DNA of 64,000 nucleotides, taken from the NCBI GenBank assembly GCA_041178425.1, contig JBEGVH010000014.1:103234-167233 (forward strand), in the 5' to 3' direction. Of the stretch, positions 27,745-47,676 are shown in pieces (the first letter of the stretch is position 1; each line of letters begins with the position of its first letter). The notes below the pieces were generated by a model. The model was not told the origin of the DNA. It did no database searches and was given only the letters and a program-made list of their open reading frames with translations. Position numbers and translations under genes: made by a program. The stretch comes from Pseudomonadota bacterium (GTDB lineage: Bacteria; Bdellovibrionota; Bdellovibrionia; Bdellovibrionales; Bdellovibrionaceae).

Positions 27745-30700
27745 GGGCTATCACTTTTTTTCTACTTTTTTTATTTGCGACGCTACTCACAGCGAACTGC
27801 CGAAGAAAAAATGAATTTCCTTCTCAACTCATCGAAAAAGAACCGGGCGCGATTACGGTACTCAACTCTGATGGTTTTATTGGATCAACAGTTGTGGGTA
27901 ATCAAATTGAAACTACCATCACCTTATTTGCTTCTGGCGGCCTAGACACCTACGATCTCAATATTCAAATAGTCACAACGGACCCTTTTTCGTTCGCCGG
28001 TGGATCTTATCCTGGAACAGGGGGTACCTGTGGAACCATTATCGAGTCGGGCGATACTTGTACTATTGTAATTCTTTATGAACCTCAGAGTACCACAACT
28101 CATCGTGCAACCCTTGCAATTAACTATCGAGACTCAATTGAAGCGCGAGCTTTAACTTTTCCTATTTCAGCAGACTCTCACCCGATATTAGTTTTTAACT
28201 ATGGGAATACTTATGACTTCGGGAATAAATTTATAGGCTCCTCGACTGATTTGCGAATTCAAATCAGCAATGCCGGCCGATCCAAAGCTGAGACAATCGC
28301 ACTCAATAACATAGTTCTCCCCTACTCTTACAAAGGAGGTACTTTTCCAGGCTCAGGCGGCAATTGCCAGTTAGAAATTATTCCAGGAGAAACATGCAGT
28401 ATCGTTGTAAATTACTCACCATCGGCGAGTGGGAGGCACTCTCAACAAATCACCTTTTCCTACACAAACAACGGCCGCCCGGAGAAATCAACGCTCAAAC
28501 TTTCAGCATGGGGCTTCAATAAAGCCGTTCTTTCATTACAGTCTGAATCGGGCGATGATAATTTTGGAACTCGTGCTAACGGTTATTCTAATCGAAAAAC
28601 CTATACTCTTCGGCACACCGCTGGTGATGTCGCAGCCAATGTAATTTCGGTGGCCAACCTACAAGCTCCCTTTAGTCGCGTTGGAGGAACCTGCGGAACT
28701 TCTTTAAGTATTGATCAAGGAACCTGCACTATCATTCTAGAAATGAACTCCCACACCTCGGGTGCGTGGCAGAACAGCGTGATTTTTAGCTATCACAATG
28801 GCATTGACCTGGTAAGTTCAATACGAACACTGACCGGTAGTACAAAACAAAAACCTGAACTAAGTTTTTCTATTTTAGACAATCTTGATTTTGGAATCGT
28901 AAACACAGGGCAATCTAGGCAAATCAACCTCACCATCACTTACCTTTCGGGTGAACTTCCCGCCACCAACCTTACCCTCTCCGGCCTCTCAACCCCATAT
29001 AGTAAATTAGCGAGTAGCAACTGCGGTGCAAGTCTTGCCTCGGGCCAGTGCCAATACGATTTTATTTACAACCCTACTTCCCGAGGAACAAACAACACAT
29101 CTGTAGATTTTTCTTTTAACGATGGATCAACCACTCAGAAAAAAACCTTTTCTTTCAGAGGGGCAACGCAATCGAATCTTACGGCCAATAGCCTCTCTTT
29201 TCCAAATACTTTGGTCGGCAATACTACATCTGGTTCTGTTGACCTAACCTTTAGCGGTGGGGCAAATATAACTTATTTATCTCACGAATTTATTCAAGAT
29301 CCAAACGATGCTCCAATGGCAAATCCCTTCGTGTTCGCCGGCAATACCTATCCGGGAACGGGTGGCACATGCAATCCTACAATAAACGGACCCTGTCGCA
29401 TCTCGATTGCTTTTAAACCTTTGTCTGCTTTGCGATACCGTTTTCGTTTGAAGTTGCATTATCATGACGGTATTACAAATAGCTCATTTGAAATTCCCAT
29501 TGAAGGCACAGGTTCAGCTGCTGCTCAGCTCACTATGAGTAATGCATCTTTCTCCAATACACCGATAAATAGTTTTTCTTCGACTGAGGTGACCGTAACC
29601 AACTCTAGTTCTCTTACCGCCACATCGCTGAACCCAATTTTACCACCCAATGTCTTTATTAAGAATGGGACCTTTCCCGGCAGTGGGCGCTATTGCAAAA
29701 GCAGTCTCCCGGGAAATAGCACTTGTGTTTTAGCACTTCTCTTTTACCCTGCATCTGATTCTAGTTATCAAAATAGTATTACCCTGAATTATTTCGATGG
29801 CTCCCAAAACCGAACGAGCAGTGTTAGTGTTCCTGGCATGGGAATAAAAACTTCACACGCTTACATCAGCCCTGAAGGCACTTATTTAGACAACTCCGAT
29901 GGTTATAACTACAATTCTGTATATTTAGGAGCGTCGAAAACAGTGAATCTGAAAATCGGCTATGGAGGAAACGCCAGCACCGCAACGATTCAATCTATGA
30001 CCACAAATAACACTCAGTTCGTCGTCACGAATTTAACGTGTTCAGCAAACCTCACCTTAAATGATACTTGTTTGGTTGCCGTGGCCTACACCCCCAACTC
30101 AACGTCTGTGTCTAATGCCGTTTTCACAGTCAATTACACCTCCGAAGGCATCTCTCGAACTGCAAGTCGGTCACTTCTTGGTACCGGCCAAAGCTCTGGC
30201 AGCCTCACCCTATCACCCGCTAGTATTAACTTTGGAACGACAGGGGTCGGAGCACAGAAGGATCAGATAATTACTGTGACTCGTTCAGGAGCCTATCCTG
30301 TAGGCTCCTTCAGTTCGGCCATCAGTGGAACTGGTTTTATTTATAAAGGGGGAACTTACCCTGGCACTGGTGGCACATGCCCCACCTTCGCGGAAGGTAC
30401 AAATTCTTGCAAAATCGTAATCTCGTTTAATCCAACCCAACAAAATACTTTTTCTGGCCAATTGTCCCTCTCTTATTACAACGGTTTTCAAAACTCTCTA
30501 GCATCAGCCGAAATGACAGGCGAAAGTGTCCCCTCTGCTAAACTAGTTTTTGAAACTACGAACTATCATTGGGGGCAATTGATACAAACACTTTCCTCAG
30601 ATAAAACAATCAGAATCACAAACAACGGTAGTCAGTCGGCCACCAGTATCAGTGCAGCAACTTTGACCAATTCCTTTAGTTATAAAGGCGGCACATTTCC

Positions 30701-31211
30701 CGGCTCGGGAGGTTCCTGCACCGATACTCTTGCACCTCTTCAAAGTTGTTCGCTAGTGGTTACCTTTAGCCCCACAGCGGTAGGAATCAAAAATACAAAT
30801 CTCGTCCTTAATTATTTAGATGGCCTCACATCAACTAACACAACAACGAGCTTGACCGGCGAGGGCATCGCCCAAGCAATCATAAGCCTTTCCGAAGTCA
30901 ATCCTTATAACTTCGGTGCGATCAACTCCGGAGGTTCACTACATAAACTATTCATCCTCACAAACGCGGGCAGCGTCACTGGTACGCAACTCGCTGGTTC
31001 ATTCACGTCAGCCTTCGGCTTTAGGGGCGGACAATTCCCTGGTTCGGGTGGCAACTGTGGAAGCACTTTAGCACCAGGAACGACCTGTACCATCGAGTTG
31101 AGTTTTACCCCCAGCGTACAGGGCAACTACATCGGGTCTTTTACTCTCAATTACAACGACGGACTAGGAGCCCAAACAGAGTACAAAGAACTTCATGCCT
31201 CCGGAAATTGA
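27741..31211 (+). CDS. Large lipoprotein with about ten tandem Ig-like (choice-of-anchor D / ASH-like) domains
   Basis: Lipobox-like TANC; repeated ~110-aa units with [YF]xFG...I.N.G...GGx[YF]PG[TS]GGxC...C...[FY]xP...L.Y.DG. Confidence 0.85.
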   Translation: MRAITFFLLFLFATLLTANCRRKNEFPSQLIEKEPGAITVLNSDGFIGSTVVGNQIETTITLFASGGLDTYDLNIQIVTTDPFSFAGGSYPGTGGTCGTIIESGDTCTIVILYEPQSTTTHRATLAINYRDSIEARALTFPISADSHPILVFNYGNTYDFGNKFIGSSTDLRIQISNAGRSKAETIALNNIVLPYSYKGGTFPGSGGNCQLEIIPGETCSIVVNYSPSASGRHSQQITFSYTNNGRPEKSTLKLSAWGFNKAVLSLQSESGDDNFGTRANGYSNRKTYTLRHTAGDVAANVISVANLQAPFSRVGGTCGTSLSIDQGTCTIILEMNSHTSGAWQNSVIFSYHNGIDLVSSIRTLTGSTKQKPELSFSILDNLDFGIVNTGQSRQINLTITYLSGELPATNLTLSGLSTPYSKLASSNCGASLASGQCQYDFIYNPTSRGTNNTSVDFSFNDGSTTQKKTFSFRGATQSNLTANSLSFPNTLVGNTTSGSVDLTFSGGANITYLSHEFIQDPNDAPMANPFVFAGNTYPGTGGTCNPTINGPCRISIAFKPLSALRYRFRLKLHYHDGITNSSFEIPIEGTGSAAAQLTMSNASFSNTPINSFSSTEVTVTNSSSLTATSLNPILPPNVFIKNGTFPGSGRYCKSSLPGNSTCVLALLFYPASDSSYQNSITLNYFDGSQNRTSSVSVPGMGIKTSHAYISPEGTYLDNSDGYNYNSVYLGASKTVNLKIGYGGNASTATIQSMTTNNTQFVVTNLTCSANLTLNDTCLVAVAYTPNSTSVSNAVFTVNYTSEGISRTASRSLLGTGQSSGSLTLSPASINFGTTGVGAQKDQIITVTRSGAYPVGSFSSAISGTGFIYKGGTYPGTGGTCPTFAEGTNSCKIVISFNPTQQNTFSGQLSLSYYNGFQNSLASAEMTGESVPSAKLVFETTNYHWGQLIQTLSSDKTIRITNNGSQSATSISAATLTNSFSYKGGTFPGSGGSCTDTLAPLQSCSLVVTFSPTAVGIKNTNLVLNYLDGLTSTNTTTSLTGEGIAQAIISLSEVNPYNFGAINSGGSLHKLFILTNAGSVTGTQLAGSFTSAFGFRGGQFPGSGGNCGSTLAPGTTCTIELSFTPSVQGNYIGSFTLNYNDGLGAQTEYKELHASGN

Positions 31212-31282
31212 AAAAACGCCGATCCTGTAAGTTATCTTTTTGATCCCTGGACATAATCGCTCTAAATGCTATCATCTTTTGA

Positions 31283-32233
31283 ATGAACAAAATCGATCGA
31301 CTCTTTGCCTCTCTTTCATCTAATTTTCTTTTGTTTATGTCTTGTGCGTGTATTTGGGGATCCACGTGGTTAGTGATTAAATATCAAATCGGCAACATCG
31401 ACCCGGTTATCAGTGTGTTTTTCCGTTTTTTTATTTCTACCGCTATTCTTTTTGCCTTTGCCTTAGCGACCGGCCGATCTCTTAAATACTCTCGACGATT
31501 CCATTTTATTTTTTTCTTCCAAGGTGCTTGTAATTTTTCGATTAACTACATCATCACCTATTGGGCGGAACACTTCGCCCCCTCCGCCACTGTCGCTCTG
31601 GCGTTCACACTTCTTCTTGCCTTTAATATTTTGGGAATGCGTCTGTTTTTTCGTAAGGCCATGGATTCGAGCGTTTACTTAGGCGCAGCCATAGGCGCCT
31701 GCGGAATTTTTCTCATTTTTGGCAATGAATTGAGCAATCTCGGAGCGGCCAGCTCTAGCCTAAAGGGTCTTGCTTTGGGAATTCTAGCAACGGTATTCGC
31801 CTCAGCCGGGAATCTTTTGTCGTATCGGAATCACCTGAACAATGTACCTGTCACAATATCGAATGCCTGGGGAATGTTCTATGGAACCCTCACCACATTG
31901 GGAATCGCATTGGTCATGAGAAAAGAATTTCAAATATCCACAACCCCCTCCTATTGGACTTCGCTGCTCTATCTTTCTGTTTTTGGTACAGTCATTGCGT
32001 TTGGAGCCTATCTGACTCTTGTTGCTAGAATTGGGGCTGAGCGCGCAGGATACACCACAATACTGTCGCCAGTTATTGCGGTCGTTTTATCGACAGTTTT
32101 TGAAGATTTTAAAATTACTCTTTACATTGCTCTCGGTCTCACCCTTTGTCTCATCGGAAACTATATAACCCTCGCAGGAAAATCGCTTCGACCTAAAAAG
32201 AAAAAATCCAAAATAGATACGTCAGTGATTTAA
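31283..32233 (+). CDS. DMT/EamA family transporter
   Basis: IWGSTWLVIK, RFF, LLYLSVFGTVIAF, two EamA-like halves. Confidence 0.92.
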   Translation: MNKIDRLFASLSSNFLLFMSCACIWGSTWLVIKYQIGNIDPVISVFFRFFISTAILFAFALATGRSLKYSRRFHFIFFFQGACNFSINYIITYWAEHFAPSATVALAFTLLLAFNILGMRLFFRKAMDSSVYLGAAIGACGIFLIFGNELSNLGAASSSLKGLALGILATVFASAGNLLSYRNHLNNVPVTISNAWGMFYGTLTTLGIALVMRKEFQISTTPSYWTSLLYLSVFGTVIAFGAYLTLVARIGAERAGYTTILSPVIAVVLSTVFEDFKITLYIALGLTLCLIGNYITLAGKSLRPKKKKSKIDTSVI

Positions 32234-32512
32234 TCATTTTTCGAAAAATAAGGGGCTTAAACCTCTTCTGTTTAAAAGTATTTCATAAATTAATAATTTT
32301 CTCAGGGGCCGTATCACCTTGAAAAAATATCTTAAGATAAATTATCTAAGTCTTCGACACATTGATTACGAAAATGCCAATGATTCGCAATTATAAAGCT
32401 GACTTTCTCAAAACCGCTCATAAGAAATGTTTTTAGAACTGTCTAGCTAAAGGTCTAGTTCACGCATTTAGACATTTTATTTAACTTTCGATGGCCTAGT
32501 TAAGCTCTGAAG

Positions 32513-32528
32513 TGGCACCACACTTGCT
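32513..32528 (+). promoter_or_regulatory. Sigma54 (RpoN) promoter
   Basis: TGGCAC-CACAC-TTGCT, a perfect -24/-12 consensus 40 nt upstream of ATG 32568, in a 334-bp AT-rich intergenic region. Confidence 0.8.
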
Positions 32529-32567
32529 CTTTTACCTCCTCGTCAGAAAAAACTACGGAGGGAAACC

Positions 32568-34214
32568 ATGAAGTTTTTAAAATTGAATCAAGCTGTCTTT
32601 AAAATTCTCCTAACAAGTAGCACGCTCGTTGCGGGTTGCTCCAATTATAACGGACCCGTCAATACGAAAGAAAGTGTGATGGGGTTCTCTGCCAAAGCCT
32701 CTGATTGGGTCGACGTCATTGATGACACTACAAATGGCGGCACAATCATCGGGGGAGCAACACCAACACCCACTCCGATTGCAGAGGAACCGCCGGTAGT
32801 TATTGAGCAACCGCCCGTGCAAGAACCTCCAGTGGTGGTTAATCCACCCATCATAGAACAACCACCAGTGGTTATTGAAGAACCACCCGTGCAAGAACCT
32901 CCAGTGGTGGTTAATCCACCCATCGTCGATCAACCACCAGTGGTTATTGAACAACCACCCGTGCAAGAACCTCCAGTGGTGGTTAATCCACCCATCATAG
33001 AACAACCACCAGTGGTTATTGAACAACCACCTGTGCAAGAACCTCCAGTGGTGGTTAACCCACCCATCGTCGATCAACCACCAGTGGTTATTGAACAACC
33101 ACCCGTACAAGAACCTCCCGTGGTGGTTAACCCACCCATCGTGACTCCTCCGCCTGTGGTACTACCTCCCATCGTCAATCCGCCAGTGGATTCTTGTGTT
33201 CCCGTCGCCCAAAATATGTGTGGATCTAAATCTCACCTCGCGCAATGCGGTGATGACGGAATGGATTCCTCTACGGATCAAGACGATGCCAATGAATGTC
33301 TAGCGTTCCGAGGACTAAATCTTTCCGCGGGAATTCATAGTCGCCATATGCCTAGAATCCGCGAAAACCATAAAAACGTTTGGCTTACTGATAGTGCCAT
33401 CACAGAACCTATCAGGGGCCACGGTAAACTCGTTATTATGTTTACTGGCAAAAAAGGCAAAGGGAGCATTTTTAAAATCGACGGTTGGAAAGGCAAAATC
33501 ATCCTCTGCGGATTCGTGGTTGATCAGATCAAACAAATCCGAGGCAAGATTGCCCTTGTAAATTCGGAGGTAAAAAAATTCGAATACAGCCGTGGCCGCC
33601 TTGTTTCTCACAGAACTGAACTGATGAATAATAAAATCAAAATCTCATCGGCCTCTCTCAGTGGCGGGCTTCTAAACCCAGGAGTTTTCTCGATCAATGC
33701 TAACAAGATTACATCTCTCGGTGATTGGACCAAAATGTCTTCTGAAAGTGTTAAAGCTAAAATGGATTTCTCTGAGCAAAAAGAGCAAGCCATCCGAGAA
33801 CATGAATTAACACTAAAAGACATCAACAATCAAATTCTCACACTCCAAAAAAGAGGTAAAGAGAAATACCACAGAGAAATCGAGATTCATCACGCTAGAG
33901 CCCAGGAGATCAGGCTTCTTATTGCCAAACTGCTAACAGTGAAAATTGGTTTCGAGTTGAACGATGATGACCACGATTGCGAACGCGACTCTAAAAAAAT
34001 AGTGACTATCGATATCTTTAAAAAATGGAGAGAATTTGCGAAGAGTGCAAATGCAAGAATTGGCCGATGCCACTCCGAAGCAAAGTCGATTTTTAACCAA
34101 GCCATCAACACAAATTATGCTTCGGCCACAAATACGACTCAAACCCAAAACTCGAGTTCAGCGATCACCTCAGGATTGGGCTCGATGCTCAGTAACCTCT
34201 TTAATAGAAAATAG
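32568..34214 (+). CDS. Lipoprotein with a Pro/Val-rich tandem-repeat spacer and an unknown basic C-terminal region
   Basis: GGAGGG RBS; lipobox VAGC; PPVVIEQPPVQEPPVVVNPPI repeats. Confidence 0.85.
   Translation: MKFLKLNQAVFKILLTSSTLVAGCSNYNGPVNTKESVMGFSAKASDWVDVIDDTTNGGTIIGGATPTPTPIAEEPPVVIEQPPVQEPPVVVNPPIIEQPPVVIEEPPVQEPPVVVNPPIVDQPPVVIEQPPVQEPPVVVNPPIIEQPPVVIEQPPVQEPPVVVNPPIVDQPPVVIEQPPVQEPPVVVNPPIVTPPPVVLPPIVNPPVDSCVPVAQNMCGSKSHLAQCGDDGMDSSTDQDDANECLAFRGLNLSAGIHSRHMPRIRENHKNVWLTDSAITEPIRGHGKLVIMFTGKKGKGSIFKIDGWKGKIILCGFVVDQIKQIRGKIALVNSEVKKFEYSRGRLVSHRTELMNNKIKISSASLSGGLLNPGVFSINANKITSLGDWTKMSSESVKAKMDFSEQKEQAIREHELTLKDINNQILTLQKRGKEKYHREIEIHHARAQEIRLLIAKLLTVKIGFELNDDDHDCERDSKKIVTIDIFKKWREFAKSANARIGRCHSEAKSIFNQAINTNYASATNTTQTQNSSSAITSGLGSMLSNLFNRK
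32790..33149 (+). repeat. Intragenic tandem repeat, 5 x 72 bp (24 aa)
   Basis: Unit PPVVIE[QE]PPVQEPPVVVNPPI[IV][ED]Q; endings alternate IIEQ/IVDQ and the last unit degenerates. Confidence 0.95.
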
Positions 34215-34262
34215 GAGGTTAAATAAGCGATATTTAAATCAAATAAGACATACCCTTCCCCG

Positions 34263-34300
34263 AAACAGAGTGTCTCTCCCCTTGGACACTCTGTTTTTTT
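34263..34300 (+). terminator. Rho-independent terminator
   Basis: AAACAGAGTGTC-N10-GACACTCTGTTT followed by further Ts. Confidence 0.85.
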
Positions 34301-34392
34301 GGGCCACCCAAAATTCACAGTCGCTAGTTTAGACTTCAAAAAGTAAAAAATAATGATTGTCTCTGAACCCAAGCCGGTGAAACAATAAAAGT

Positions 34393-34959
34393 ATGAAATC
34401 GTCATTGATCCCCTTTCAATCAAGTCTAACGACCCTTAAATTCGAAACCGACAGTAAAATTTCTGGTCAAAATCTCGAGATAACTTATAAACTTTCTGGC
34501 GCGCTAGAAAATATAAACCTCCTCCATAACTTTCCTTCAAAAAAAAACAGAAAAAATGAACTCTGGAAAGACACCTGTTTTGAGTGGTTTATCGGCTCGA
34601 AAACGAACAGCCAATATTGGGAATTTAACGCCTCTCCCTCTGGAGAATGGAATTTCTATCAGCTCGATGACTATCGAAAAAATCTCACCGAATGCGAACA
34701 TATAGGTGCTGACGATATTAATTTTTCCTCTCAATCGTTGAATGAGGACAAGTGCAACTATTCGTTTAAAATGAACATCGCTTTGAACTCGCTCCTGAGG
34801 GCCCAGCCTAATCTTATAGCCGATGGTGCTCTAGCCCTTACAGCGGTCATTCGGACCAATCTTGGAGCCACAGACTATTATTCTCTTAAACACCCAAGCG
34901 AAAAACCAGACTTTCACAACAGAACTGGCTTTATTATCCCATTGAAGGAGCTCGAATAA
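34393..34959 (+). CDS. DOMON-like domain protein (murB-like subfamily)
   Basis: ELWKDTCFEWF, YWEFNASPSGEWN, LTAVI, KPDFH. Confidence 0.8.
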   Translation: MKSSLIPFQSSLTTLKFETDSKISGQNLEITYKLSGALENINLLHNFPSKKNRKNELWKDTCFEWFIGSKTNSQYWEFNASPSGEWNFYQLDDYRKNLTECEHIGADDINFSSQSLNEDKCNYSFKMNIALNSLLRAQPNLIADGALALTAVIRTNLGATDYYSLKHPSEKPDFHNRTGFIIPLKELE

Positions 34960-36158
34960 TGTTTCAACTCGGAATCGATCAGTTACTCACAAATTCAGAA
35001 CTCAAAGATCAACTCAAGAACAAGAAACTGGCTTTTGTTGGCCATCCAGCGTCTGTCACTAAAGATCTCACTCACTCATTGAATGCTCTAGTGGAACAAA
35101 AATTCAATGTAGTTTGCGCCTACGGACCTCAGCACGGAATGAGAGGCGAAAAGCAAGATAATATGATCGAGAGCGAAGACTATCTTGATCCAGAATTAAA
35201 GATTCCAGTTTTTAGTCTCTATGGATCTTCGAGACGTCCCTCAGAAGAAAGCTTGAAGCTTTTTGATATCTGCCTCTTTGACCTACAAGATGTCGGCACT
35301 CGAATCTATACATTTCTAACAACACTTCGCTATATGATGGAAGGCTGTGCGAAAGCCAAAAAAGCCCTTTGGATTTTAGATCGCCCAAATCCCGCTGGAC
35401 GCCCTATTGAGGGAACTCTTTTAAGAGAAGGCTGGGAGTCGTTTGTTGGTGCCGGCCCGTTTCCGATGCGCCATGGAATGACCCTTGGCGAATGTGCCTT
35501 ATGGTTTAAAGACTTTTTAAAGCTCGATATCGATTTAAAAGTCATAAAAATGCAAGATTACAATCCGGATGCCGCACCTTATTTTGGTTGGCCCTCAGAA
35601 TTATCATGGGTAAACCCTTCACCGAATGCGGCCACACCACACATGGCAAAAACGTTCCCTGGAACGGTAATGATCGAAGGAACCCACCTTTCTGAAGGGC
35701 GTGGTACCACTCACCCACTGGAGCTCCTCGGCGCCTCTGATATTGATATTCATCGAATCTTGAAGAAAATGAAAACTCTTGCCCCCGAATGGACCCAGGG
35801 CTGTATTATTCGTGCGTGTTACTTTGAACCTACGTTTCATAAGCATCAAAAAACACTCTGCCAGGGCTTCCAAATACACGTCGACCACCCCACCTACAAT
35901 CATTATCAATTTAAACCTTATCGCCTCGTGGCTCTCTTTTTTAAAGCGCTTCGACTGGAATACCCTGGTTATCAAATTTGGAAGCAGTTCGCTTACGAGT
36001 ACGAGCACGATCGCTTAGCTATCGATTTGATAAACGGGAGTCCGCTCTTGCGCGAATGGGTTGACGATAAGAATGGAACGGTGGCTGATTTTGAAAAGGC
36101 TAATCTCATCGATGAGAGAGCCTGGAAAGAATCAACAGCAAAATACTTACTGTATTAA
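34959..36158 (+). CDS. namZ: Exo-beta-N-acetylmuramidase NamZ (DUF1343) family
   Basis: GPQHG, FSLYG, FDLQDVGTRIYTF, LDRPNP, RHGMTLGE, WVNPSPN, SEGRGTTHPLE. Confidence 0.9.
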   Translation: MFQLGIDQLLTNSELKDQLKNKKLAFVGHPASVTKDLTHSLNALVEQKFNVVCAYGPQHGMRGEKQDNMIESEDYLDPELKIPVFSLYGSSRRPSEESLKLFDICLFDLQDVGTRIYTFLTTLRYMMEGCAKAKKALWILDRPNPAGRPIEGTLLREGWESFVGAGPFPMRHGMTLGECALWFKDFLKLDIDLKVIKMQDYNPDAAPYFGWPSELSWVNPSPNAATPHMAKTFPGTVMIEGTHLSEGRGTTHPLELLGASDIDIHRILKKMKTLAPEWTQGCIIRACYFEPTFHKHQKTLCQGFQIHVDHPTYNHYQFKPYRLVALFFKALRLEYPGYQIWKQFAYEYEHDRLAIDLINGSPLLREWVDDKNGTVADFEKANLIDERAWKESTAKYLLY

Positions 36159-36203
36159 AGGTGAAAATGGCGAGTCGACACAAAGAGCCGACTCGCTCAG
36201 ATT

Positions 36204-37073
36204 CTATCGACTTACAAGAGCCTCTACAGCTTTTGTTGCTTCAACAATTTGTATAGAATTTTCATTGAATCCACTAAACGTTACTGTTTTGCGTGGATCA
36301 ATATTCAACAAATTCCAGTATTCCTGAAATTTAGCAAGCAAGGCAGGATCACTAGATAGTTCCCGATAGAACTTGGCAATTTCAATCGGCATTTGCGATC
36401 GAGCCAAACCATTGAGCTCCGCAATCTTCTTAGAAGTCGTCGCTTCTAATTTAGCAACTTCTAAGCGCCCCTCTTCTTGAACAATGGCCGTTGTTCTTTC
36501 AATTCGAGCAGCAACAGCATGAAAAAATTGCTTCGTAATATCAGATAAAAGACCGATATTTTGAATCATCGCATCGGACAGAGAAATTCCCCAGCGCTCT
36601 GTCTCAAACGCAATCGACTTTTTAAGCTTTTCACCCAACTCAGAGCGGTGGAGCAAAATTTCGTTTACTGACTGAGAAGAAAGAATCGAAGCCGTCGAAT
36701 GTATCACCGTGCTCTGCAAGACCTCTTCCCAATTCTCAACGCCAAATAAAGCCTTGTAAGGATCCGTCACTCTAAACTCAATCCACAGATCAACAACGAC
36801 GGTGGTTCCGTTTTTGTCATTAACCTGAATACTTCGATAGGTTCTAAAATCAATCTGTTTAGAAACAGTGATGACCTCTACCCATAGCAAAACTTTTTTA
36901 GGCGCAAAATGCAAACCCGGCTTCCAGAAGGACTTTTCTAAGCGACCAGCGTTGAGCAAAAATGTTTCTGAATGCTCTCTCACCTGAAGAGTTATTTTAG
37001 AAAAAATAGACCATCCAATTCCAACCAATAAGATAACTGCGATAAAACCAAAAAAAACTGTCGATAACTCCAT
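36204..37073 (-). CDS. SPFH/band-7 domain protein (second of the pair)
   Basis: N-terminal TM, PGLHF, DKNGTTVVVDLWIEFRVTDPYKALFGVEN, RWGISL, coiled-coil tail. Confidence 0.88.
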   Translation of the reverse strand: MELSTVFFGFIAVILLVGIGWSIFSKITLQVREHSETFLLNAGRLEKSFWKPGLHFAPKKVLLWVEVITVSKQIDFRTYRSIQVNDKNGTTVVVDLWIEFRVTDPYKALFGVENWEEVLQSTVIHSTASILSSQSVNEILLHRSELGEKLKKSIAFETERWGISLSDAMIQNIGLLSDITKQFFHAVAARIERTTAIVQEEGRLEVAKLEATTSKKIAELNGLARSQMPIEIAKFYRELSSDPALLAKFQEYWNLLNIDPRKTVTFSGFNENSIQIVEATKAVEALVSR

Positions 37074-37996
37074 TAGATATCTCCTTTTTGTAAAAATACT
37101 AACTTGGAATCACCAAGCAATTCCGCTCTCCGGTGCGCAAGATAATGATCAGCATTTCCTTCAGCCATAAGACCTTTGATTGTTTTTGCAAGAATTCTGA
37201 GTTCATTTGCAACCGACTCTGCACGTACTTTTGCAATCTCAACTCCCTGCTCGGCCGCTAAGACTTTCTGGCGGGTATCCGCCTCGGCTTTGGAGTACAT
37301 TGTGTCAGCCTCGGTCTTTGCATTTTGAATACCATTGAGCGCCGACTCTAGTTCCTGAGGCGGAACGATATCGATCAGATCAACGCCTAAAAATTGAATC
37401 CCATAAGAACTTCCGATTTGGCTGCGACATATGTATTCGACTTGCTGATTTAAAAGTTTTCGTTCACGACGAATCTCCGAATAAGATCCAAGAATTTCTT
37501 CTGTGCTTGTTGAAGACCCCTTGAAATTGGCAATCTCATTACGAATAACACAAATAAACATCTCTTTGATGTGACCCATTGGGTTTTTTAACTCGAAAAG
37601 GTAGCTATAATACGAAGAGCTTTTCGGAAAGAACCGGATTTTTGAATCTAATCTTAAAACAGTGCCATCCGCAGCCATGGCATACTTTCCACCTTCTTCT
37701 CCGGATAGATCGATGACTCTCTCCATGGTAGAAAAAATAATGACCTTGTCCCAGGGAAATTTCCAATGTCCACCTGGCGAATACAATTGCATTGGTTTTG
37801 AATCAGTCAATTCCGCCTCACGTGATTGGCTTGAAGATGCATTTTTATGCCCCTCCAAGACAACAGCCCCAAAGCGAACTAAAACGGCTAAGTGTCCTTC
37901 TTCCACGTGGAAATAAGCTAACCATAACCACGCAACTAAAAAACAACAAAGCGCTATTCCCACTCCAACCATAAAACTCAAAATATCAAATTCCAT
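37073..37996 (-). CDS. SPFH/band-7 domain protein (first of the pair)
   Basis: N-terminal TM, VEEGHLAVLVRFG, PGGHWKFPW, YGIQFLGVDLIDIVPP, AEA-rich coiled coil. Confidence 0.88.
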   Translation of the reverse strand: MEFDILSFMVGVGIALCCFLVAWLWLAYFHVEEGHLAVLVRFGAVVLEGHKNASSSQSREAELTDSKPMQLYSPGGHWKFPWDKVIIFSTMERVIDLSGEEGGKYAMAADGTVLRLDSKIRFFPKSSSYYSYLFELKNPMGHIKEMFICVIRNEIANFKGSSTSTEEILGSYSEIRRERKLLNQQVEYICRSQIGSSYGIQFLGVDLIDIVPPQELESALNGIQNAKTEADTMYSKAEADTRQKVLAAEQGVEIAKVRAESVANELRILAKTIKGLMAEGNADHYLAHRRAELLGDSKLVFLQKGDI

Positions 37997-37998
37997 GT

Positions 37999-40077
37999 CT
38001 AACTCCTCGGTTGATCATTTTTTAATTTTAAATTTTCGTCTAATTCACGATAGGCCTGAGCCAAACCCTTGTTGACTTCCACAACGTCTTCATTGAAGTG
38101 CTGGTGCACAGGACTCACACGGGCCAGGTTTTTGGCCTTTTCTTGAGTATCAATGATGGCTCCGTGAGGAACATATCGACCATCTGGCACTTCCACACCT
38201 ACCACAACAGCACCAATACCAATGTAACAGCCCTGCCCAACGATCGAGTCGTGAACGACAGCTTTAAATCCTACAAAAGTTTCGTTACCAATGAAACAAG
38301 GCCCATGAACTAACGCTTGGTGAGCCAGCGAAACATGCGAACCAATGTAAACGGCCCACTCCTCGTTGTGCACCCGCACCCATTTTTGCTTGAGAGCATG
38401 AATAACAACACCATCTTGAACGTTTGTATTATCGCCGATATAGAATGGCGTTCCCTCATCGGCCCTCACAGAGGCTTCAGCCGCGATGTGAACATTTTTT
38501 CCGAGTACGACTCTCCCAATTAAGGATGCGTTCGGATGCACATAGGCTGTCTGTGAAACGCTGGCTTGCTGCTTTAGATGATGAAGCCAACGCTCTCCTC
38601 GCTCAAGAACAGAATACACCACTCCTGACTGAAGCGACTCCTTAGGTTTTGCTGACGTCAAATCGGTTTTCTTTGGTTTTCCGGTGATTCCTTCGTCTTT
38701 CTTTTCAAAGGTACCAATCCAGGCCAGCACTAAGCCAAGGGCAAGACCAGACACAATTCGATCAGTCACTGTTCCAATGGCCGCCGCAAGAAAGGCTAAT
38801 GCGAGTAATTTATTTTGTTTTACCAAATGAATAAACTCAGAAAACTCAATCAACCTGAACCCAATAATACAGAGGAGTCCGGCGAGGGATGCTATTGGAA
38901 TTTTCGAAAGCATCGCACCAAGAAATAAGGCTGAACAAAGTAAGATAACGGCATGAAGCAAACTGGCTAACCTGTTCTTAGCGCCACTTTGAACGTTTAC
39001 AGAAGATCGTACAACCACTCCTGATACTGGCATGCCACCAAACAAACCCGTGACAACATTGGCAAACCCCTGCCCCAGGATTTCAAGATTTGAATGGTGT
39101 TTATCACCACTCATTCTATCGATGGCCTGAGCAGAAAGAACACTTTCTGCTGCGGCTAATAGTCCTAAAGGAAGAGCTAACTGAAGAAGCTGCAACCAAC
39201 TTTCTGGTGCCATGATTGGAAAGCTCCAGGCTAAGTCGACCGGTGGAATTTCGCCCACTAAATGAATGGGCCAATCAAGAAAACTGGCAAGCTCAGTGGT
39301 TACTGCGATCGCCACTAAGGCGGCTGGGAAACGAGGAATCGAGCGGAACGATAATATAAAAAACAGAACAAAGAGTCCGCAAACAACAGCGGGCCAAGAA
39401 GCATCATGCAGCCATACAGGATGACCGAGATCAAGAATCATCTGATCGAGAGCCCACTCAATGCCAAAAAGCTTAGGCACCTGACCATCTAATAATTTAA
39501 CTCCCACTCCGGTCGTGAAACCCAATAACACAGCCTCAGGAACAAACTTCATCAAATTGCCCGCAGCCCCTATCGAGAGGAGAATTTGGATGAGCCCCAC
39601 TAATAGTGCTGCCGCCGCTGCACCCGCCGCACCAAATTGTTGTACAATCGCAAAAACCATGGCGCTGAGAGCGGCAGCAGGTCCAGTTGCTTGAAAGCGG
39701 CTACCACCAAGAATGGCCGCGATTCCTCCACCAATAGCACCGGCTACCAATCCTGTCGAAGCTGGCAAACCAGCGGCTATCGCTAGAGCTAGATTCAGCG
39801 GCAATGCAACAGCCGCAACCGTTATTCCTGCAGTGAGGTTCGGACCAAACTGGGTGTCTTCTATCAAGGTCTTCCAGTCATTCACCAAAAAGCGAAGAGA
39901 GTCTTTTAAAGGATGCAAGAAACCACGACCTAAAGTTAAGGCTTCATAATCCCCGCTCAGAGCTCCCAAGCGACTAAGGCGCACAAACCCGTCAGCCTTG
40001 GATCGCTTGGGTTCTTCTAGAGTTTCTTTATATTTTTTTTGAGTTCTTGATAAACCTTCCGACAAATCAACCTCCAT
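37999..40077 (-). CDS. SulP/SLC26 anion (bicarbonate) transporter fused to a gamma-class carbonic anhydrase; no STAS domain
   Basis: AGITVAAVALPLNLALAIAAG, GGSRFQATGP, GFTTGVG, GQGFAN..GGMPVSGVVVRSSVNVQSGA; C-terminal hexapeptide repeats with RADEG, NVQDGVVIHAL, LAHQALVHGP, VVEVNKGLAQAY. Confidence 0.92.
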   Translation of the reverse strand: MEVDLSEGLSRTQKKYKETLEEPKRSKADGFVRLSRLGALSGDYEALTLGRGFLHPLKDSLRFLVNDWKTLIEDTQFGPNLTAGITVAAVALPLNLALAIAAGLPASTGLVAGAIGGGIAAILGGSRFQATGPAAALSAMVFAIVQQFGAAGAAAAALLVGLIQILLSIGAAGNLMKFVPEAVLLGFTTGVGVKLLDGQVPKLFGIEWALDQMILDLGHPVWLHDASWPAVVCGLFVLFFILSFRSIPRFPAALVAIAVTTELASFLDWPIHLVGEIPPVDLAWSFPIMAPESWLQLLQLALPLGLLAAAESVLSAQAIDRMSGDKHHSNLEILGQGFANVVTGLFGGMPVSGVVVRSSVNVQSGAKNRLASLLHAVILLCSALFLGAMLSKIPIASLAGLLCIIGFRLIEFSEFIHLVKQNKLLALAFLAAAIGTVTDRIVSGLALGLVLAWIGTFEKKDEGITGKPKKTDLTSAKPKESLQSGVVYSVLERGERWLHHLKQQASVSQTAYVHPNASLIGRVVLGKNVHIAAEASVRADEGTPFYIGDNTNVQDGVVIHALKQKWVRVHNEEWAVYIGSHVSLAHQALVHGPCFIGNETFVGFKAVVHDSIVGQGCYIGIGAVVVGVEVPDGRYVPHGAIIDTQEKAKNLARVSPVHQHFNEDVVEVNKGLAQAYRELDENLKLKNDQPRS

Positions 40078-40158
40078 GGGATGAAATAGAATTGCAAATC
40101 AAATTAAGAGATCATTAAGATGTGCAAGTCAAAAAATATTGGACTTACAAAAAAAACT

Positions 40159-40503
40159 TTAGCCGATCGATAAGAAAACTTTAGGAGGAGGAACTAGGGG
40201 CTCGGTGGCATGCGATATAAAAAGGTGTGCTAGGTCATTCGCATTAAAAACAACATGGTTTTGAAACCAAATGAGATGATTACAAAACACATTAGACTCA
40301 TCGTTGTGGCTGATAAAATTCTCAGTTTCTTCTAAATTGGATTCTTTTGACTCGGAGGATTCTACCCAATCTTCCGCCGTTTCGACAAGAAAAACATCAC
40401 TGCTAAGGGGATCAAAAAAAGAGCGATTTAGAGCTCCGCAAAACACTTGAAGAACTATCAAAAAGCAAAGGCATAACCGATTAAAATTTGAGATGGTTCC
40501 CAT
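40159..40503 (-). CDS. Short membrane-anchored hypothetical protein (TM, acidic linker, C-terminal PPP)
   Basis: LCLCFLIVLQVFCGAL hydrophobic segment; EDWVESSESKESNLEETE; ends HATEPLVPPPKVFLSIG; start uncertain (40503 or 40539). Confidence 0.55.
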   Translation of the reverse strand: MGTISNFNRLCLCFLIVLQVFCGALNRSFFDPLSSDVFLVETAEDWVESSESKESNLEETENFISHNDESNVFCNHLIWFQNHVVFNANDLAHLFISHATEPLVPPPKVFLSIG

Positions 40504-40630
40504 TCCGAGGACCCTAGCATGATCAAAAAACCAAGGCAATACCCATCCTACCCCATTAGACTTATTAACTAGACCTTGGGAGGGAGCCTCTCAAATTGTG
40601 CGAGGATTCTAATCAAAAAGAGGTAAGAAT

Positions 40631-42259
40631 ATGTCTATGAAGCCTTTTGTGATTCTCACAATTCCTATTTTTATGCCATTTTTAACTATCGACGTTTTAT
40701 TTGGTTCAACCAAAAACGTAAACTGTACGATCGAGGGCCTTACCAAATCGTGCGCTATTCTTGATGATGAAAAAGCAAATGGATTAACCGAATTTCCCGA
40801 CGGCTCTTTTTATGTTAATCCAAGAGAACTCGAAGCCGTCGAGTCTTTTAGTGATCCCAAAAAGCCCGAGGCCCTTGCCAGAAAAAAAGAGATTTTGGAA
40901 CAATGGCATTCCTACATCTATGATTACGATCTCAAAAAATGGAACACCGGCTTTATCGACAGCATCCTCGATGAAAAATTTTTGTTTCAAATGGGAGAAA
41001 ATCCAGCCCCCAAATCTATTTCCGTATGTTGGCCTCCAGATAAATCTGAAAAGAGTTGCTCCATTAGAGAGATCCCCACCTCAATGTTACAAAAAATCTT
41101 AAAATCAAAACCTGATCCTCAACACCGATTTGATTTTGAAACTGTTGGTTTTTACCATGGAAGATCCCTGCAAAATATCGGAGCCTCGCAAGAGGCTGTT
41201 TTAACAAAGATTATCGAGAAACAACAATCAGCCCGCCAATCAAAAAAACAGCTGGTCGACCAAATCAGCGAAAAAGTCCGTAAGAACTTAATAGCCACCA
41301 TCAAGGCTGACCGACTCGACTCCAACCTCTCTGATTCCGAAAAAATACTCATTAAAAAAATTGAGACAATTTCAATTAATCATGGTGATAATCCCGATGT
41401 CTCGATCCACCAGGCCTGCCAAGGCCTTTCGCCTAATGCCTTTTACGAACCCACTACCCACTCGATAAACCTTTGCGATAACATGTATGGGATGTCAGAA
41501 GCAAACCTGGCTCTCACCCTTGCTCATGAAATGAGTCACGCCATCGACCCCTGTAACTTTCGCAATACGCTCTGGATTAAAAAAACCGATCAGACTGTGC
41601 GCTTCGCAAATACACCGATGCGCATGAGCGAACTCTTTCAACCGTTTACAACAATGACGCCAATCAATGAAGAAGATTCCTTGGAGAGTTATCCCTTCAA
41701 AGCGGTCTATCAATGTTTACAAGAAAACTATAACCTAGAGGCAACCAATACAACGAGTGAGGAGCGCAATACAGAAACACTAAACAGGCAAGATCGCTTG
41801 ATAAAAAAGGTCGGCAGAATGTCGAATGTTGAAGTCTCACCTATGGTTATTGGCTTTAGTCGGCATAATGCAAAAAATGACTGCACCAATTTCTCCAATA
41901 TGAATGAGGCCCTCGCTGATTGGCTCGCAGGTGAAACCGTGGGTTCGATGATTCAAAAGGGAGATATAAAATCAACATCCATCACTTCTAGCCCTCTGCT
42001 ACCCACACTCATGGGCTGTTGGCAAAAAGAAGACGCCACAAAAGAAAATAACCAGCAAGCTGTGCTCCTCGCACTCGACGCCCACCCGATTGCAAGAGAT
42101 CGCGAAGATATTCTAATGCAAAACCCAACCATCAGAAAAACGCTCAGATGCCTTTCGAACCCTAAGCAGAGTGCCCAACGTTGTCTTTGGAAAGATAAGT
42201 CCCAGTCAGCTTCTGAATCGAACCAAACACCAATGGCCCCCGAGGAACACATACGATGA
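40631..42259 (+). CDS. Secreted putative gluzincin-type Zn metallopeptidase
   Basis: NAFY strand, LAHEMSHAID (HExxH), downstream EALADW, HP; N-terminal hydrophobic segment. Confidence 0.7.
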   Translation: MSMKPFVILTIPIFMPFLTIDVLFGSTKNVNCTIEGLTKSCAILDDEKANGLTEFPDGSFYVNPRELEAVESFSDPKKPEALARKKEILEQWHSYIYDYDLKKWNTGFIDSILDEKFLFQMGENPAPKSISVCWPPDKSEKSCSIREIPTSMLQKILKSKPDPQHRFDFETVGFYHGRSLQNIGASQEAVLTKIIEKQQSARQSKKQLVDQISEKVRKNLIATIKADRLDSNLSDSEKILIKKIETISINHGDNPDVSIHQACQGLSPNAFYEPTTHSINLCDNMYGMSEANLALTLAHEMSHAIDPCNFRNTLWIKKTDQTVRFANTPMRMSELFQPFTTMTPINEEDSLESYPFKAVYQCLQENYNLEATNTTSEERNTETLNRQDRLIKKVGRMSNVEVSPMVIGFSRHNAKNDCTNFSNMNEALADWLAGETVGSMIQKGDIKSTSITSSPLLPTLMGCWQKEDATKENNQQAVLLALDAHPIARDREDILMQNPTIRKTLRCLSNPKQSAQRCLWKDKSQSASESNQTPMAPEEHIR

Positions 42260-42705
42260 TATTCGGCCTTAAAGTTTTATTAACCTATTCGGTAATTTTT
42301 GCCTTCCCCAATCAGGAAAAGCTCGATCACTATTTAAAGGTTCAAATCGAATCTCGAACAAAAGAAAGTTTTGTTCTCAAACAAACCACCTCTGGAAGTG
42401 TCTCTAAACGAACAATCACTCACCTCATTGACAATAAATCGATTTCGGAGGTAGAGGTGCCAACCCAATTTTTTACGACAATGCTTAAAGAAGGTAAGAA
42501 TTTCGCAAATCTTTTACCGCCTCAAGGTGATTGTGGTCATGGGGGAATCTCGTTGATTGAGATAAAATCCCTTTCTGAACGTAACCTCAAGGCCTCGAAG
42601 AAAACTTTTTGCTCCCCACTCAAGAACAAACAAAAAGAATGGAAACTAATGCAGAACTGGTTCTCAACTCTCTCAAGTTACGCGAGAGGCCAAGTACGCC
42701 GTTAA
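42256..42705 (+). CDS. Small basic exported hypothetical protein
   Basis: ATGA overlap with the upstream peptidase gene; signal-like N-terminus; one Cys pair. Confidence 0.6.
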   Translation: MIFGLKVLLTYSVIFAFPNQEKLDHYLKVQIESRTKESFVLKQTTSGSVSKRTITHLIDNKSISEVEVPTQFFTTMLKEGKNFANLLPPQGDCGHGGISLIEIKSLSERNLKASKKTFCSPLKNKQKEWKLMQNWFSTLSSYARGQVRR

Positions 42706-42775
42706 AACGAGGGGCCTAGGTTTGACCCCAGGTTAACTAACTTTACTCCATGAAGCACTCGTAAATATGATGTGT

Positions 42776-45700
42776 TTACAACTCTTGCATTGCTTGTAGG
42801 CTATGCACCTCAAAAGCCTTTTCTCTTGTTTTCTTCAAAGCGATGAGAAAAGCCTCGGCGGCATCACTTTCAGTTAAACAAGGAATGCTGTAGTCGATAC
42901 AAGCACGACGAATGTTAAAACTAGCTTCGATCGAACGACGTCCAGAGGTGGTATTGATCACTAAGCTCACTCCTCCCGAACGAATCTTATCGACGCAATG
43001 AGGTCGGCCCTCGTGAACCTTTTTGTATTCAGCACATTGAAGTCCCTGCTCTTGAAAGAAATGAGCAGTACCCTTGGTCGCAGACAAAGTATAACCCATC
43101 TCTACAAGATCACGAGCAATGAGGAGCATTTCAGTTTTGTCTTTTTCTCTGAGCGAGAAGAAAACCTCACCCTTTTCTGGAAACCGCATGTGGGAAGAGA
43201 GCATGCCCTTCATTAGAGCTTCGCCATAATCGGCCCCTCTTCCCATACTCTCACCCGTGGACTTCATTTCAGGTCCGAGAATAGAATCCGCCTCAGGGAA
43301 CTTTTTAAACGGAAAAACAACACCCTTAACACAAACTCCAGGGCGAGAGCGCCATACAAAGCGCTCTGGCTTAACCTTTTCTTTACCATCTCCAAGCATC
43401 GCCGCCACACCCAAATCGATGAGTGGAATGCCCGTGGCTTTCACAACAAAAGGCACCGAACGCGAACTACGAGGATTAGCCTCTAGCATGTATACTTGGT
43501 CTTGTTTAATTGCTAATTGCAGATTCAGGTGACCAATCACACCAATGCGATCGGCTAATTGCTGACTCATCACTTCCACTTTGTCGCTTGTTTCTCGGCG
43601 AAGTCGTTGCGGAGGAATAACACCCTGACTATCACCCGAATGAACACCAGCCGCTTCAATATGTTCAACGACGCCACCAACGACCACCCAGTCTTTTCCG
43701 CGCACCAGATCAACATCAACCTCAAGCGCTCCGGCCAAGAATTGATCAATCAAACAGGGGCGATCAGTAGAAATCGCTTCTTGATGACGTTCAAAATAAC
43801 TAACAAGTTCTTCTGCATTTTCTACGACTTCCATGCGTCGCCCACCTAGTACATAACTCGGACGACAAATGACTGGAAACCCAATACGCTCAACGATTCC
43901 CTGAGCCCCTTGTAAATCATGGGCCATGCCCGACTCAGGAATTTTAAAATTCAATTCTCGACATATTTTATTGAATCGTCCGCGGTCTTCTGCCAGGTCG
44001 ATCGTCTCAAGATCAGATCCCATCAATTTAAATCCACGCTTCACAAGCCCTGGAGCAACGTTAATGGGGGTTTGACCACCCAATTGAACCACAACAGAAT
44101 CAACTTTTGCCGCATACAAAATCTCACTCACGTGTTCTTCGGTGAGCGGTTCAAAAAATAGATAATCCGCAGTATCATAATCGGTCGAAACAGTTTCTGG
44201 ATTGGAATTGATCATACAAACTTGCCAACCCTTTTTCTGATATCCCTTCACTCCACGCACACAACTGTAATCGAACTCGATCCCCTGACCAATACGATTA
44301 GGCCCACTCCCTAAGATCGCAACACGCTTTTCTGCACGAGGTAACTCAACCGGCTTTGACCAGTACGTCGAGTAATAATAAGGAGTCGATGAAGCAAATT
44401 CACCAGCGCAGGTATCAACCTGCTGGTAACTCGGTAGGACTTTCTCTTGGTGACGCATTTCGCGCACTTCAATTTCTGTTTTCTTTGTCAGTCGAGCGAT
44501 CAAGGCATCGGAGAATCCCCGTTTTTTAGCCTGCAATAGAAGATCCGCCGTCAATGAAGAGGCTTTGAGCGTGCCTTCGAAGTCAACTAGCCCCTTCACT
44601 TGCTCTAAAAACCACGGTGTGATCAGTGTTAGTTCTTGAAGGCTCTCAATTGTCCATCCATCACGAAAGGCTTGATAAATATGAAATAAACGCTGGCTAT
44701 TTGGATATGAAATCTTATCCACTTCGACAGTGATCTCTGGAAAACCCTCTCGATGTTTTTCAAGAGAGAGCACAGCCTTCATCAACGACTCTTGAAACGT
44801 TCTACCAATGCCCATTACTTCGCCCACGCTCTTCATTTGAGTGGACAACAAATCACGAGCACCAACAAATTTTTCAAAGGCAAAGCGAGGAATTTTTGTA
44901 ACTATATAATCAAGTGCTGGTTCATAGCAGGAAGGCGTAGTCTTAGTGATATCGTTCTGAATTTCTTCAAGACGATAACCAATCGCCAACAAAGCGGCAA
45001 TCTTTGCAATCGGAAAACCCGTGGCTTTAGATGCCAGAGCTGAAGATCGACTCACTCGGGGATTCATTTCAATAACTACACGCTCACCCGTTTTTGGATG
45101 AACTGCAAATTGAATATTAGCACCACCCGTCTGCAATCCTACTTCGTTGATAATTTTGCCGGCCTCATCACGCATCGCTTGATATTCGCGATCAGACAAA
45201 GTCTGTTGAGGAGCGATGGTGATACTATCGCCGGTGTGAACTCCACAGGGGTCGAAATTTTCAATGGTACAAATAATTACGAAGGTACCCGCGGCATCTC
45301 GCATCACCTCAAGTTCGTACTCTTTCCAGCCAAGAATACTCTCTTCAACGAGAACTTCAGTGGTTGGGCTTTCATGAAGTGCCTGCACTAACATACTTTG
45401 ATACTCTTCGGGAGAATAGGCAATTCCTCCGCCCCCTCCACCCAGAGTGTAATTGGGGCGAAGGATCAACGGATAACCTAATTCATCTCCCACTTGAGTT
45501 CCTTGTTCGAACGTGCGAACCAAATGACTCTTTGGGTATTTGGCTCCCACTTTATCGAGAATATCCCGAAAAAGTTCACGGTCTTCAGCGGCCTCAATCA
45601 CCTTTGGATCGGCGCCAAGCAGTTGAACATTATACTTTTGCAGCACCCCTTCTTTATGAAGGGCGAGAGCAAGATTAAGGGCCGTTTGACCACCTAGAGT

Positions 45701-47674: not shown

Positions 47675-47676
47675 AG

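Follow-up and report, generated by a model that had tools for sequence, protein, structure and literature searches.

A SulP–gamma-carbonic anhydrase fusion encoded with a dedicated pair of SPFH proteins in Bdellovibrionota and Myxococcota

Organisation of the operon

The window analysed here is a 64,000-nt stretch of contig JBEGVH010000014.1 (positions 103,234 to 167,233), from a Pseudomonadota bacterium assembly (GCA_041178425.1) that is placed in the Bdellovibrionaceae. It contains three consecutive minus-strand open reading frames (ORFs), which encode a SulP transporter fused to a gamma-class carbonic anhydrase (CA) and two SPFH proteins, here called SPFH-A and SPFH-B (Table 1). The three genes stay together across two phyla, and we propose that the SPFH pair cages the transporter–enzyme fusion. 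The genome has a size of 3.06 Mb and a completeness of 100%, and its closest named relatives among the matches listed are Pseudobdellovibrionaceae.

The three genes are tightly coupled, as the original prediction had it: the fusion stop codon is followed by a gap of 2 nt, and SPFH-A and SPFH-B share a TAATG overlap at 37073. The fusion probably starts at the TTG codon at 40065, the point at which its close homologs begin. NfeD, FtsH and HflX, already said to be missing from the neighbourhood, were looked for in 28000–48000 in every ORF that reaches 80 aa and not found; ten neighbours and operon members were checked by Pfam scan and the remaining ORFs by eye.

The SulP–gamma-carbonic anhydrase fusion

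The membrane half of the fusion matches Pfam Sulfate_transp at residues 80–431 (E = 1.4e-64), and its Foldseek neighbours, SULTR4;1, SLC26Dg and BicA, have the SLC26 fold. A STAS domain gave no Pfam match in the fusion; a linker and the gamma-CA stand in its place. The SulP domain scores below every NCBIfam equivalog cut-off, with 133.6 for BicA (cut-off 880) and 216.5 for DauA (cut-off 614). We infer bicarbonate as its substrate from the fusion to a CA.

The hexapeptide domain is closest to CcmM (3.4e-60) and then to the Cam-type CA (2.6e-54), both matches lying below the curated cut-offs, and its model superposes on Cam as a left-handed beta-helix (root-mean-square deviation 1.0–1.2 Å). No Pro_CA domain (PF00484) was found in the fusion. 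With Cam numbering read from an alignment to Cam, the three His ligands, Arg59, Asp61, Glu62, Asn73, Gln75, Asp76 and Asn202 are invariant in 63 of 63 CA domains. The window's own domain carries the zinc ligands His560, His586 and His591 together with Arg538, Glu541, Asn552, Gln554 and Asn669. In Cam, Glu84 is the proton shuttle and sits on an acidic loop; here it is replaced by Lys in 60, Gln in 2 and Arg in 1 of the 63 domains (Lys563 in the window), the loop is shortened, and Tyr200 is variable. On this residue pattern the CA domain is likely to be catalytically active.

The lysine at the Glu84 position also suits an alternative, in which the CA is a metal-bound bicarbonate/CO2 sensor or a trimerising gate, and the substrate of the caged transporter is a dicarboxylate or some other anion. 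The match of SulP to DauA is about as good as its match to any other protein, the membrane partner can be exchanged, with DUF1275 as one of the replacements (below), and the genome already has two beta-CAs and a SulP–DabA locus. However, apart from Glu84 the catalytic residues of Cam do not vary, this glutamate is described as not strictly conserved or needed (PMC7199487), and the solved CcmM CA has Gln at this position. One fusion partner, moreover, has BicA-like motifs, and SulP–CA links in other bacteria are reported to point to bicarbonate (PMC6458275). We consider a sensor or gate decidedly improbable.

Linkage of the fusion and the SPFH pair

The expectation that the SPFH pair would recur with the fusion in distant taxa was strongly borne out in two phyla, Myxococcota and Bdellovibrionota. 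In species-representative genomes the fusion alignment matched at least 599 stretches, of which 578 were confirmed and the best 80 kept; by title these are Myxococcota and Bdellovibrionota, with a few labelled proteobacteria only. SPFH-A lies directly downstream of the fusion at 78 of these 80 loci and both SPFH genes follow at 77, the remaining 3 ending at a contig edge; by a stricter count all three genes are present at 74. In the reverse direction, 80 of the 104 confirmed metagenome loci picked by SPFH-A were examined, near-duplicates included; the gamma-CA is directly upstream of SPFH-A in 64 of the 80, and in the remaining 16 the upstream sequence is no longer than 245 nt.

Because both 80-locus sets are ranked by similarity, even genome samples (251 Myxococcota and 301 Bdellovibrionota) were searched as well. 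The fusion CA is present in 19 of the 251 Myxococcota genomes; a dedicated SPFH-A adjoins it in all 19 and SPFH-B in 18, the other locus being on a contig that ends inside SPFH-A. No genome of the 251 has the dedicated SPFH-A without the CA. Seven of the 301 Bdellovibrionota match the CA, one of them with a distant stand-alone enzyme, and five of the six fusions have the pair. In the source's own family, SPFH-B occurs in 7 of 151 genomes. Since kin are not independent, these counts measure conservation and are not to be read as a p-value.

Gene order and coupling are constant while the flanks vary (median gaps of 12 nt and 0 nt over 68 loci), and no larger flanking gene is conserved as a fourth member. 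Two metagenome-assembled genomes hold two full operon copies each, one for each of the two SulP clades described below (L075 and L081; L077 and L080). A search of plasmids with SPFH-A gave no match, and none of four proteins matches a PADLOC anti-phage model. Elsewhere, a stand-alone gamma-CA (L190, G225:C1) sits in a locus that by eye resembles a zinc-limitation response, with GTPase metallochaperones, a TonB receptor and ABC metal uptake.

A generic sister pair

At lower scores (130–165 bits) the SPFH-A profile picks up a second class, a stand-alone two-gene SPFH operon. This highly conserved generic pair occurs in 11 of the 301 Bdellovibrionota and 38 of the 251 Myxococcota, the 11 and 24 of the 38 being genomes without the fusion, and its SPFH-A family comprises at least 8000 protein clusters. 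In a quick tree with long outgroup branches, dedicated and generic A proteins cluster (SH-aLRT 99), as do dedicated and generic B proteins (98), apart from HflK and HflC. Judged by these relationships, the dedicated pair arose as a specialised copy of an SPFH pair that is widespread on its own. The original prediction of a pair dedicated to the fusion thus stands for this subclade, but its origin is not unique. Pair and fusion were not found mostly apart, as a refutation of the idea would have had it: the dedicated subclade appears in no other context. The generic sister pair stands alone, and one fusion is without a pair.

By gene arrangement and hosts, the generic pair is probably SPFH11a/b, described as an invariably adjacent, divergent pair in Chloroflexi, Acidobacteria, Planctomycetes and a myxobacterium (Hinderhofer 2009, PMC2636767); cluster names did not resolve this identity. 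Other SPFH operons listed in the available text of PMC13086221 include none with a transporter or a CA. Client-less generic loci (L176–L186, L198 and L199) appear to be unstudied.

The generic pair bears directly on a second alternative, a co-regulated module without contact, in which the role of the pair is to organise a lipid patch or to shield the membrane when the stress that calls for the transporter–CA (pH or low CO2) sets in, and the operon secures only joint expression and transfer. Generic pairs do occur alone in both phyla, a pair-less fusion exists, and the patchy distribution within the source's family would fit a mobile cassette that is co-transferred. Against this, 14 of the 19 fusion-bearing Myxococcota keep a generic pair elsewhere in addition to the dedicated one, order and tight coupling are constant where flanks are not, and the SPFH cap residues are changed exactly where the fusion has lost its tail (below). 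We regard a module without contact as unlikely.

SPFH-A and SPFH-B and the side of the membrane

Both proteins match Band_7 above its cut-off (E = 3.6e-14 for SPFH-A and 6.4e-21 for SPFH-B), and their mutual divergence, noticed at the outset, was upheld by BLASTP, which gives no significant match between them (E = 0.6). Against the HflK/HflC models TIGR01933/TIGR01932, the pair scores 24.2 and 40.2 for a cut-off of 159.4, and 18 for a cut-off of 134.4. Among solved structures, the best sequence matches of SPFH-A are HflC (E = 8e-11) and HflK (E = 6e-7). The only other SPFH gene of the genome is stomatin-like and lies on another contig behind an ORF recognised by eye as NfeD-like, so that the genome total is three Band_7 genes with no HflK/C pair among them.

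Charges flanking the membrane anchor were counted in 144 SPFH-A and 143 SPFH-B rows, near-duplicates included. Lys and Arg average 0.0 (SPFH-A) and 0.13 (SPFH-B) before the anchor and 1.8 and 1.2 after it, and in no row do they outnumber on the first side those on the second. In the Escherichia coli controls, HflK and HflC have two positive residues each before the anchor and QmcA has none; QmcA (YbbK) is described on the cytoplasmic side and HflK/C on the periplasmic side (PMC2636767). The charge pattern of the pair is that of QmcA, and the SPFH dome is therefore predicted on the cytoplasmic face, the same side as the CA. The topology of SLC26 proteins puts the STAS domain, and hence a CA in the place of STAS, in the cytoplasm.

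Solved heterodimeric SPFH complexes alternate their two subunits and form domes 190–210 Å wide and 110–165 Å high (10.1101/2025.04.21.649849). By our estimate such a dome would have room for a few SulP domains and CA trimers. A complex prediction with two chains each of SPFH-A and SPFH-B, taken from SPFH2 through the cap, and the C-terminal 34 residues of the tail-bearing fusion at L041 scored 0.02 against a mark of 0.32, and tells neither way.

HflC and HflK as the best solved matches of SPFH-A invite a third reading, proteolytic control of the HflK/C kind: the pair would cage or recruit FtsH or another protease and so set the turnover of the fusion, with the C-terminal tail as a degradation or adaptor tag. 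HflK/C is reported to cage FtsH (PMC13220708), and this genome has no HflK/C pair of its own. Conserved free C-termini often act as protease tags, which also counts for proteolysis. No protease gene is found among the conserved neighbours, however; the predicted orientation is opposite to that of HflK/C, scores fall far under the HflK/HflC cut-offs, and the pair branches apart from them. Proteolytic control is accordingly improbable in our judgement.

Exchange of the membrane part and joint loss of tail and cap residues

At 7 of 63 complete loci the SulP domain belongs to a different clade (B). The distance between clades A and B is 3.84, versus 1.39 within A, and the other parts of the operon are not split along this line (0.70/0.70 for the CA, 1.80/1.86 for SPFH-A and 1.66/1.60 for SPFH-B). 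Among the top CA-profile representatives, of which 25 of 150 were scanned, the same gamma-CA clade is also fused to a SulP–STAS protein with motifs judged by eye to be BicA-like (P0381) and to DUF1275 (P0376); both tails end in Phe. Judged from these sequences, the membrane part is exchanged (two SulP clades, SulP–STAS and DUF1275) while the gamma-CA stays.

Several further arrangements were seen. The DUF1275 partner in P0376 is YoaK-like, and locus L102 has a DUF1275 gene ~3.7 kb downstream of the pair. A more distant gamma-CA is fused to another SulP–STAS and is tail-less (P0390). P0043, P0370, P0371 and P0380 are proteins of 720–830 aa with several tandem hexapeptide or gamma-CA-like domains. 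The fusion of genome G089 lies at L175 (G089:C3, 4455–8040), where a stand-alone, STAS-less clade-B SulP is followed by the clade-A fusion, tail-less and pair-less, and a small ORF with a hydrophobic start precedes both.

Beyond the CA, fusions usually carry a tail of 17–61 residues (median ~37), in which little is conserved but the final Arg/Lys-Phe, frequently preceded by Trp residues. Of 94 fusions that fall outside the window's clade, 80 end in RF or KF, 13 in another Phe, Leu or Ile, and 1 is tail-less; inside that clade, 0 of 25 have the RF/KF end. One Kofleriaceae type ends in Lys-Pro-Phe/Leu rather than Arg-Phe. A RAV-type motif in the linker is present in 67 of the 94 other fusions and in 0 of the 25.

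The SPFH proteins changed in the same clade. Position 288 of SPFH-A is His in 30 of 30 closest homologs, the partner of the lone tail-less outsider among them, and Arg in all 90 others. With a cap boundary drawn after the data had been seen, the conserved columns lost in the tail-less clade amount in SPFH-B to 11 of 20 in the cap versus 8 of 63 elsewhere (p = 3e-4), and in SPFH-A to 3 of 7 versus 6 of 63. Cap enrichment of lost columns is significant in 0 of 7 tail-bearing control clades. The pair-less G089 fusion is tail-less too. In a monomer model of CA plus tail, of modest quality (mean pLDDT 61.8), the tail has pLDDT <50 and shows no sign of folding back; by our arithmetic an extended 37-residue tail could span >100 Å, the height of a dome. 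The pattern suggests that the tail is a cap-docking peptide. The window itself is an atypical, tail-less member that retains the pair.

Candidate leader, control elements and neighbouring genes

Upstream of the fusion lies a candidate leader ORF, with a hydrophobic N-terminal segment, an acidic middle and a C-terminal EPLVPPPK, which gave no match in a Pfam scan. It probably belongs to the operon as a fourth, upstream unit. Leader-like ORFs end shortly upstream at 17 of 74 fusion loci versus 13 of 1552 control windows, by criteria set after examples had been inspected; a detectable leader is missing at most fusion loci. Codon comparison in four pairs of relatives, with a mild third-position excess and many amino-acid changes, weakly supports coding. 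The RNA from leader to start codon is not unusually structured (z = +1.21), and no hairpin was found to cover the start, which leaves a SecM-type hairpin unsupported, and a promoter scan gave fewer sites than in shuffled sequences.

The layout resembles that of the RAPP-like arrest leaders of the CruR/DUF2946 and RQH kinds, short ORFs with an export signal and a C-terminal di-proline motif that stand upstream of a transport operon (PMC9426467, PMC10987492). The ORFs described here differ in having no CXXC, an acidic middle and no Pfam match, and their motifs HRPP, VPPP (the window's) and TPPP are not among the RAPP-like variants tested in the available text of these reports. Leader-like ORFs with other conserved ends were seen at L013, L016, L030, L072 and L117, and at L029, L141 and L162; the WRPSNP-type (Cystobacter) and RxQI-before-stop ends are possibly further stalling motifs.

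Table 1. Features of the operon and its flanks; positions are those of the window.
Feature	Position	Strand	Basis
SulP–gamma-CA fusion ORF, 692 aa	37999..40077	-
SulP/SLC26 transmembrane domain, ~residues 55–461; invariant Glu311 (transmembrane helix 8) and Arg357 (helix 10)	38695..39915	-	Pfam, Foldseek
Disordered linker, residues 460–504, pLDDT <50	38566..38700	-	structure model
Cam/CcmM-type gamma-CA domain	38032..38595	-	HMM, structure, alignment
Short C-terminus of the fusion, without the long Arg/Lys-Phe tail	37999..38031	-	alignment of fusions
SPFH-A, 307 aa: N-terminal anchor preceded by no positive residue, SPFH1/2, coiled coil, cap; His288	37073..37996	-	Pfam, structure, charge analysis
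SPFH-B, 289 aa: anchor of the same type as SPFH-A; cap region remodelled in the window's clade	36204..37073	-	Pfam, charge analysis
GAGGAG ribosome-binding site for SPFH-A, within the last codons of the fusion gene	38003..38008	-	sequence
Probable true ribosome-binding site GGAGG (40071–40075) and TTG start (40065) of the fusion	40063..40075	-	sequence, N-termini of close homologs
Candidate leader ORF; 126 aa if it starts at TTG, 114 aa if it starts at the ATG at 40503	40159..40539	-	ORF list, anatomy
Probable terminator: hairpin that separates SPFH-B from the convergent NamZ gene	36168..36199	-	z = -2.96; 3 of 200 shuffles fold equally well

Divergent from the operon lies the gene of a 542-aa protein (40631–42259) that has an HEMSH zincin motif and weakly matches Peptidase M76, followed by a pyrB–carA–unknown gene–carB cluster (42776–48576). 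A functional link to these bicarbonate users was considered and rejected, because they are absent from the conserved neighbours and a genome of the same genus has other flanks (L187). On the other side are a 1156-aa probable lipoprotein with repeated Ig-like domains and a recurring GGxYPGxGGxC motif (27741–31211) and a 548-aa protein (32568–34214) that looks secreted, contains a long Pro/Val/Glu repeat, PPVVIEQPPVQEPPVVVNPP, and has no Pfam match. Elsewhere in the genome are the two beta-CAs (Pro_CA, on other contigs) and one weak further gamma-CA homolog. Its second SulP gene stands directly before a DabA (PF10070) gene (L004, G000:C20, 2–2604, minus strand), a second inorganic-carbon locus in a heterotroph.

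Proposed function

We favour a model, to which we give a probability of roughly 0.55, in which an alternating, cytoplasmic dome of SPFH-A and SPFH-B holds the transporter–CA as a bicarbonate/proton shuttle. The two SPFH proteins would be made in step through translational coupling and would assemble as an alternating ring that rises into a dome over the inner membrane, on its cytoplasmic side. This dome would enclose or corral the fusion, with a trimeric CA in the cytoplasm at the place of STAS. SulP would move bicarbonate, probably with H+, and the CA would interconvert bicarbonate and CO2, the latter passing freely through the membrane floor. The unit may thereby act as a local bicarbonate/acid-base (proton) shuttle, with the direction of flux a matter of conjecture, while the dome would hold, stabilise and gate it and separate the CA from the bulk cytosolic bicarbonate pool. 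The client would be recognised through its CA half, not its transporter, and in most lineages the flexible Arg/Lys-Phe tail may tether the fusion to the dome cap.

The original prediction had included a CO2/HCO3- microcompartment at the membrane. We rejected a strict CO2-concentrating compartment on physical grounds (Rubisco was not searched for): the dome floor would be a CO2-permeable membrane, and the named hosts of the operon are heterotrophs. A CA confined beside its transporter is the more defensible form.

Several points weigh against the caged shuttle. No experiment on any operon member was found in the literature. SulP shares 29% identity with DauA, a dicarboxylate carrier, which bears on the bicarbonate assignment. 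The Glu84 position of the CA is mostly occupied by lysine. For the side of the membrane, comparing charges after and before the anchor would miscall HflC; only the missing N-side positives separate the controls, and near-duplicates are among the rows counted. Genome G089 (97% complete) has an intact fusion and the pair nowhere, its only Band_7 gene being stomatin-type, so the pair is dispensable there; the full operon is present in three more genomes of the same order. Another genome (G552) holds a second, truncated SulP/CA piece without a pair within the 5 kb read. The generic pair has no client in its operon, and such SPFH proteins can therefore work without one. Finally, the joint loss of tail and cap residues is a single evolutionary event in one clade, measured with a post hoc boundary; the RAV linker motif was lost in that same clade and could be the tail's real partner. 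The tail cannot be the sole contact, since the pair is retained in the window's clade although the tail is gone.

A bolder extension of the model is a membrane-floored protein microcompartment, in which the SPFH dome loads specific enzyme–transporter cargo by the cargo's C-terminal peptide, the long flexible Arg/Lys-Phe tail bound at the cap, in the manner of an encapsulin, and expression is tuned by a ribosome-stalling leader; we think this doubtful. If true, any membrane protein that gained the CA–tail module would be drawn into the cage, and a CA confined against the membrane would provide a gated bicarbonate/proton shuttle for heterotrophic predators.

Relation to known systems and significance

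Each part of the operon has precedent, and the combination was not found described. Felce and Saier reportedly noted in 2004 SulP–beta-CA fusions and can–sulP pairs of the Rv3273 type. As in those, which are presumed bicarbonate transport metabolons, a SulP membrane domain is linked here to a cytoplasmic CA; unlike them, the CA is of the gamma class (Cam/CcmM, trimeric), STAS is mostly missing, a C-terminal tail is conserved and an SPFH pair is near-obligate. In the ESM Atlas the beta form is a separate cluster with STAS and Pro_CA.

The two divergent SPFH proteins from adjacent genes recall HflK/HflC–FtsH, where HflK/C form an alternating cage around a membrane client (PMC13220708, 10.1101/2025.04.21.649849). 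In contrast, the operon pair is predicted to be cytoplasmic and is not orthologous to HflK/HflC by cut-off or tree, and its proposed client is a transporter–enzyme, with no protease or hflX. SPFH11a/b are likewise adjacent and divergent, but the main text on SPFH11 contains no mention of carbonic or sulfate (PMC2636767). Stomatin–NfeD operons (SPFH1/2/5) differ from the locus, which has no adjacent NfeD gene. In red cells, stomatin binds directly to the bicarbonate exchanger AE1 (band 3) and stimulates it (PMC5383999). Stomatin–AE1 with carbonic anhydrase II resembles the operon, and CA–transporter metabolons are discussed for AE1; that system is eukaryotic, however, with one SPFH protein of many partners and an unfused CA, and the likeness is an analogy only.

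That no system of this composition had been described agrees with our search, which covered subscription journals only sparsely and found no paper on a SulP–gamma-CA fusion together with SPFH genes; databases label the operon proteins generically. The operon gives bacterial SPFH scaffolds a rare, obvious client. Natural variants are available (tail-bearing, tail-less and pair-less fusions and four membrane partners), with the generic paralogous pair as a specificity control, and the operon is testable in E. coli, where growth would serve as a simple measure. Should the dome enclose the CA, this would amount to a new mode of compartmentalising a reaction at a membrane, to a bacterial counterpart of the stomatin, band 3 and CA arrangement, and possibly to a tool that directs proteins into membrane cages. 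The near-constant association of fusion and pair in myxobacteria and related predators points to an undescribed, caged machine for handling bicarbonate or pH.

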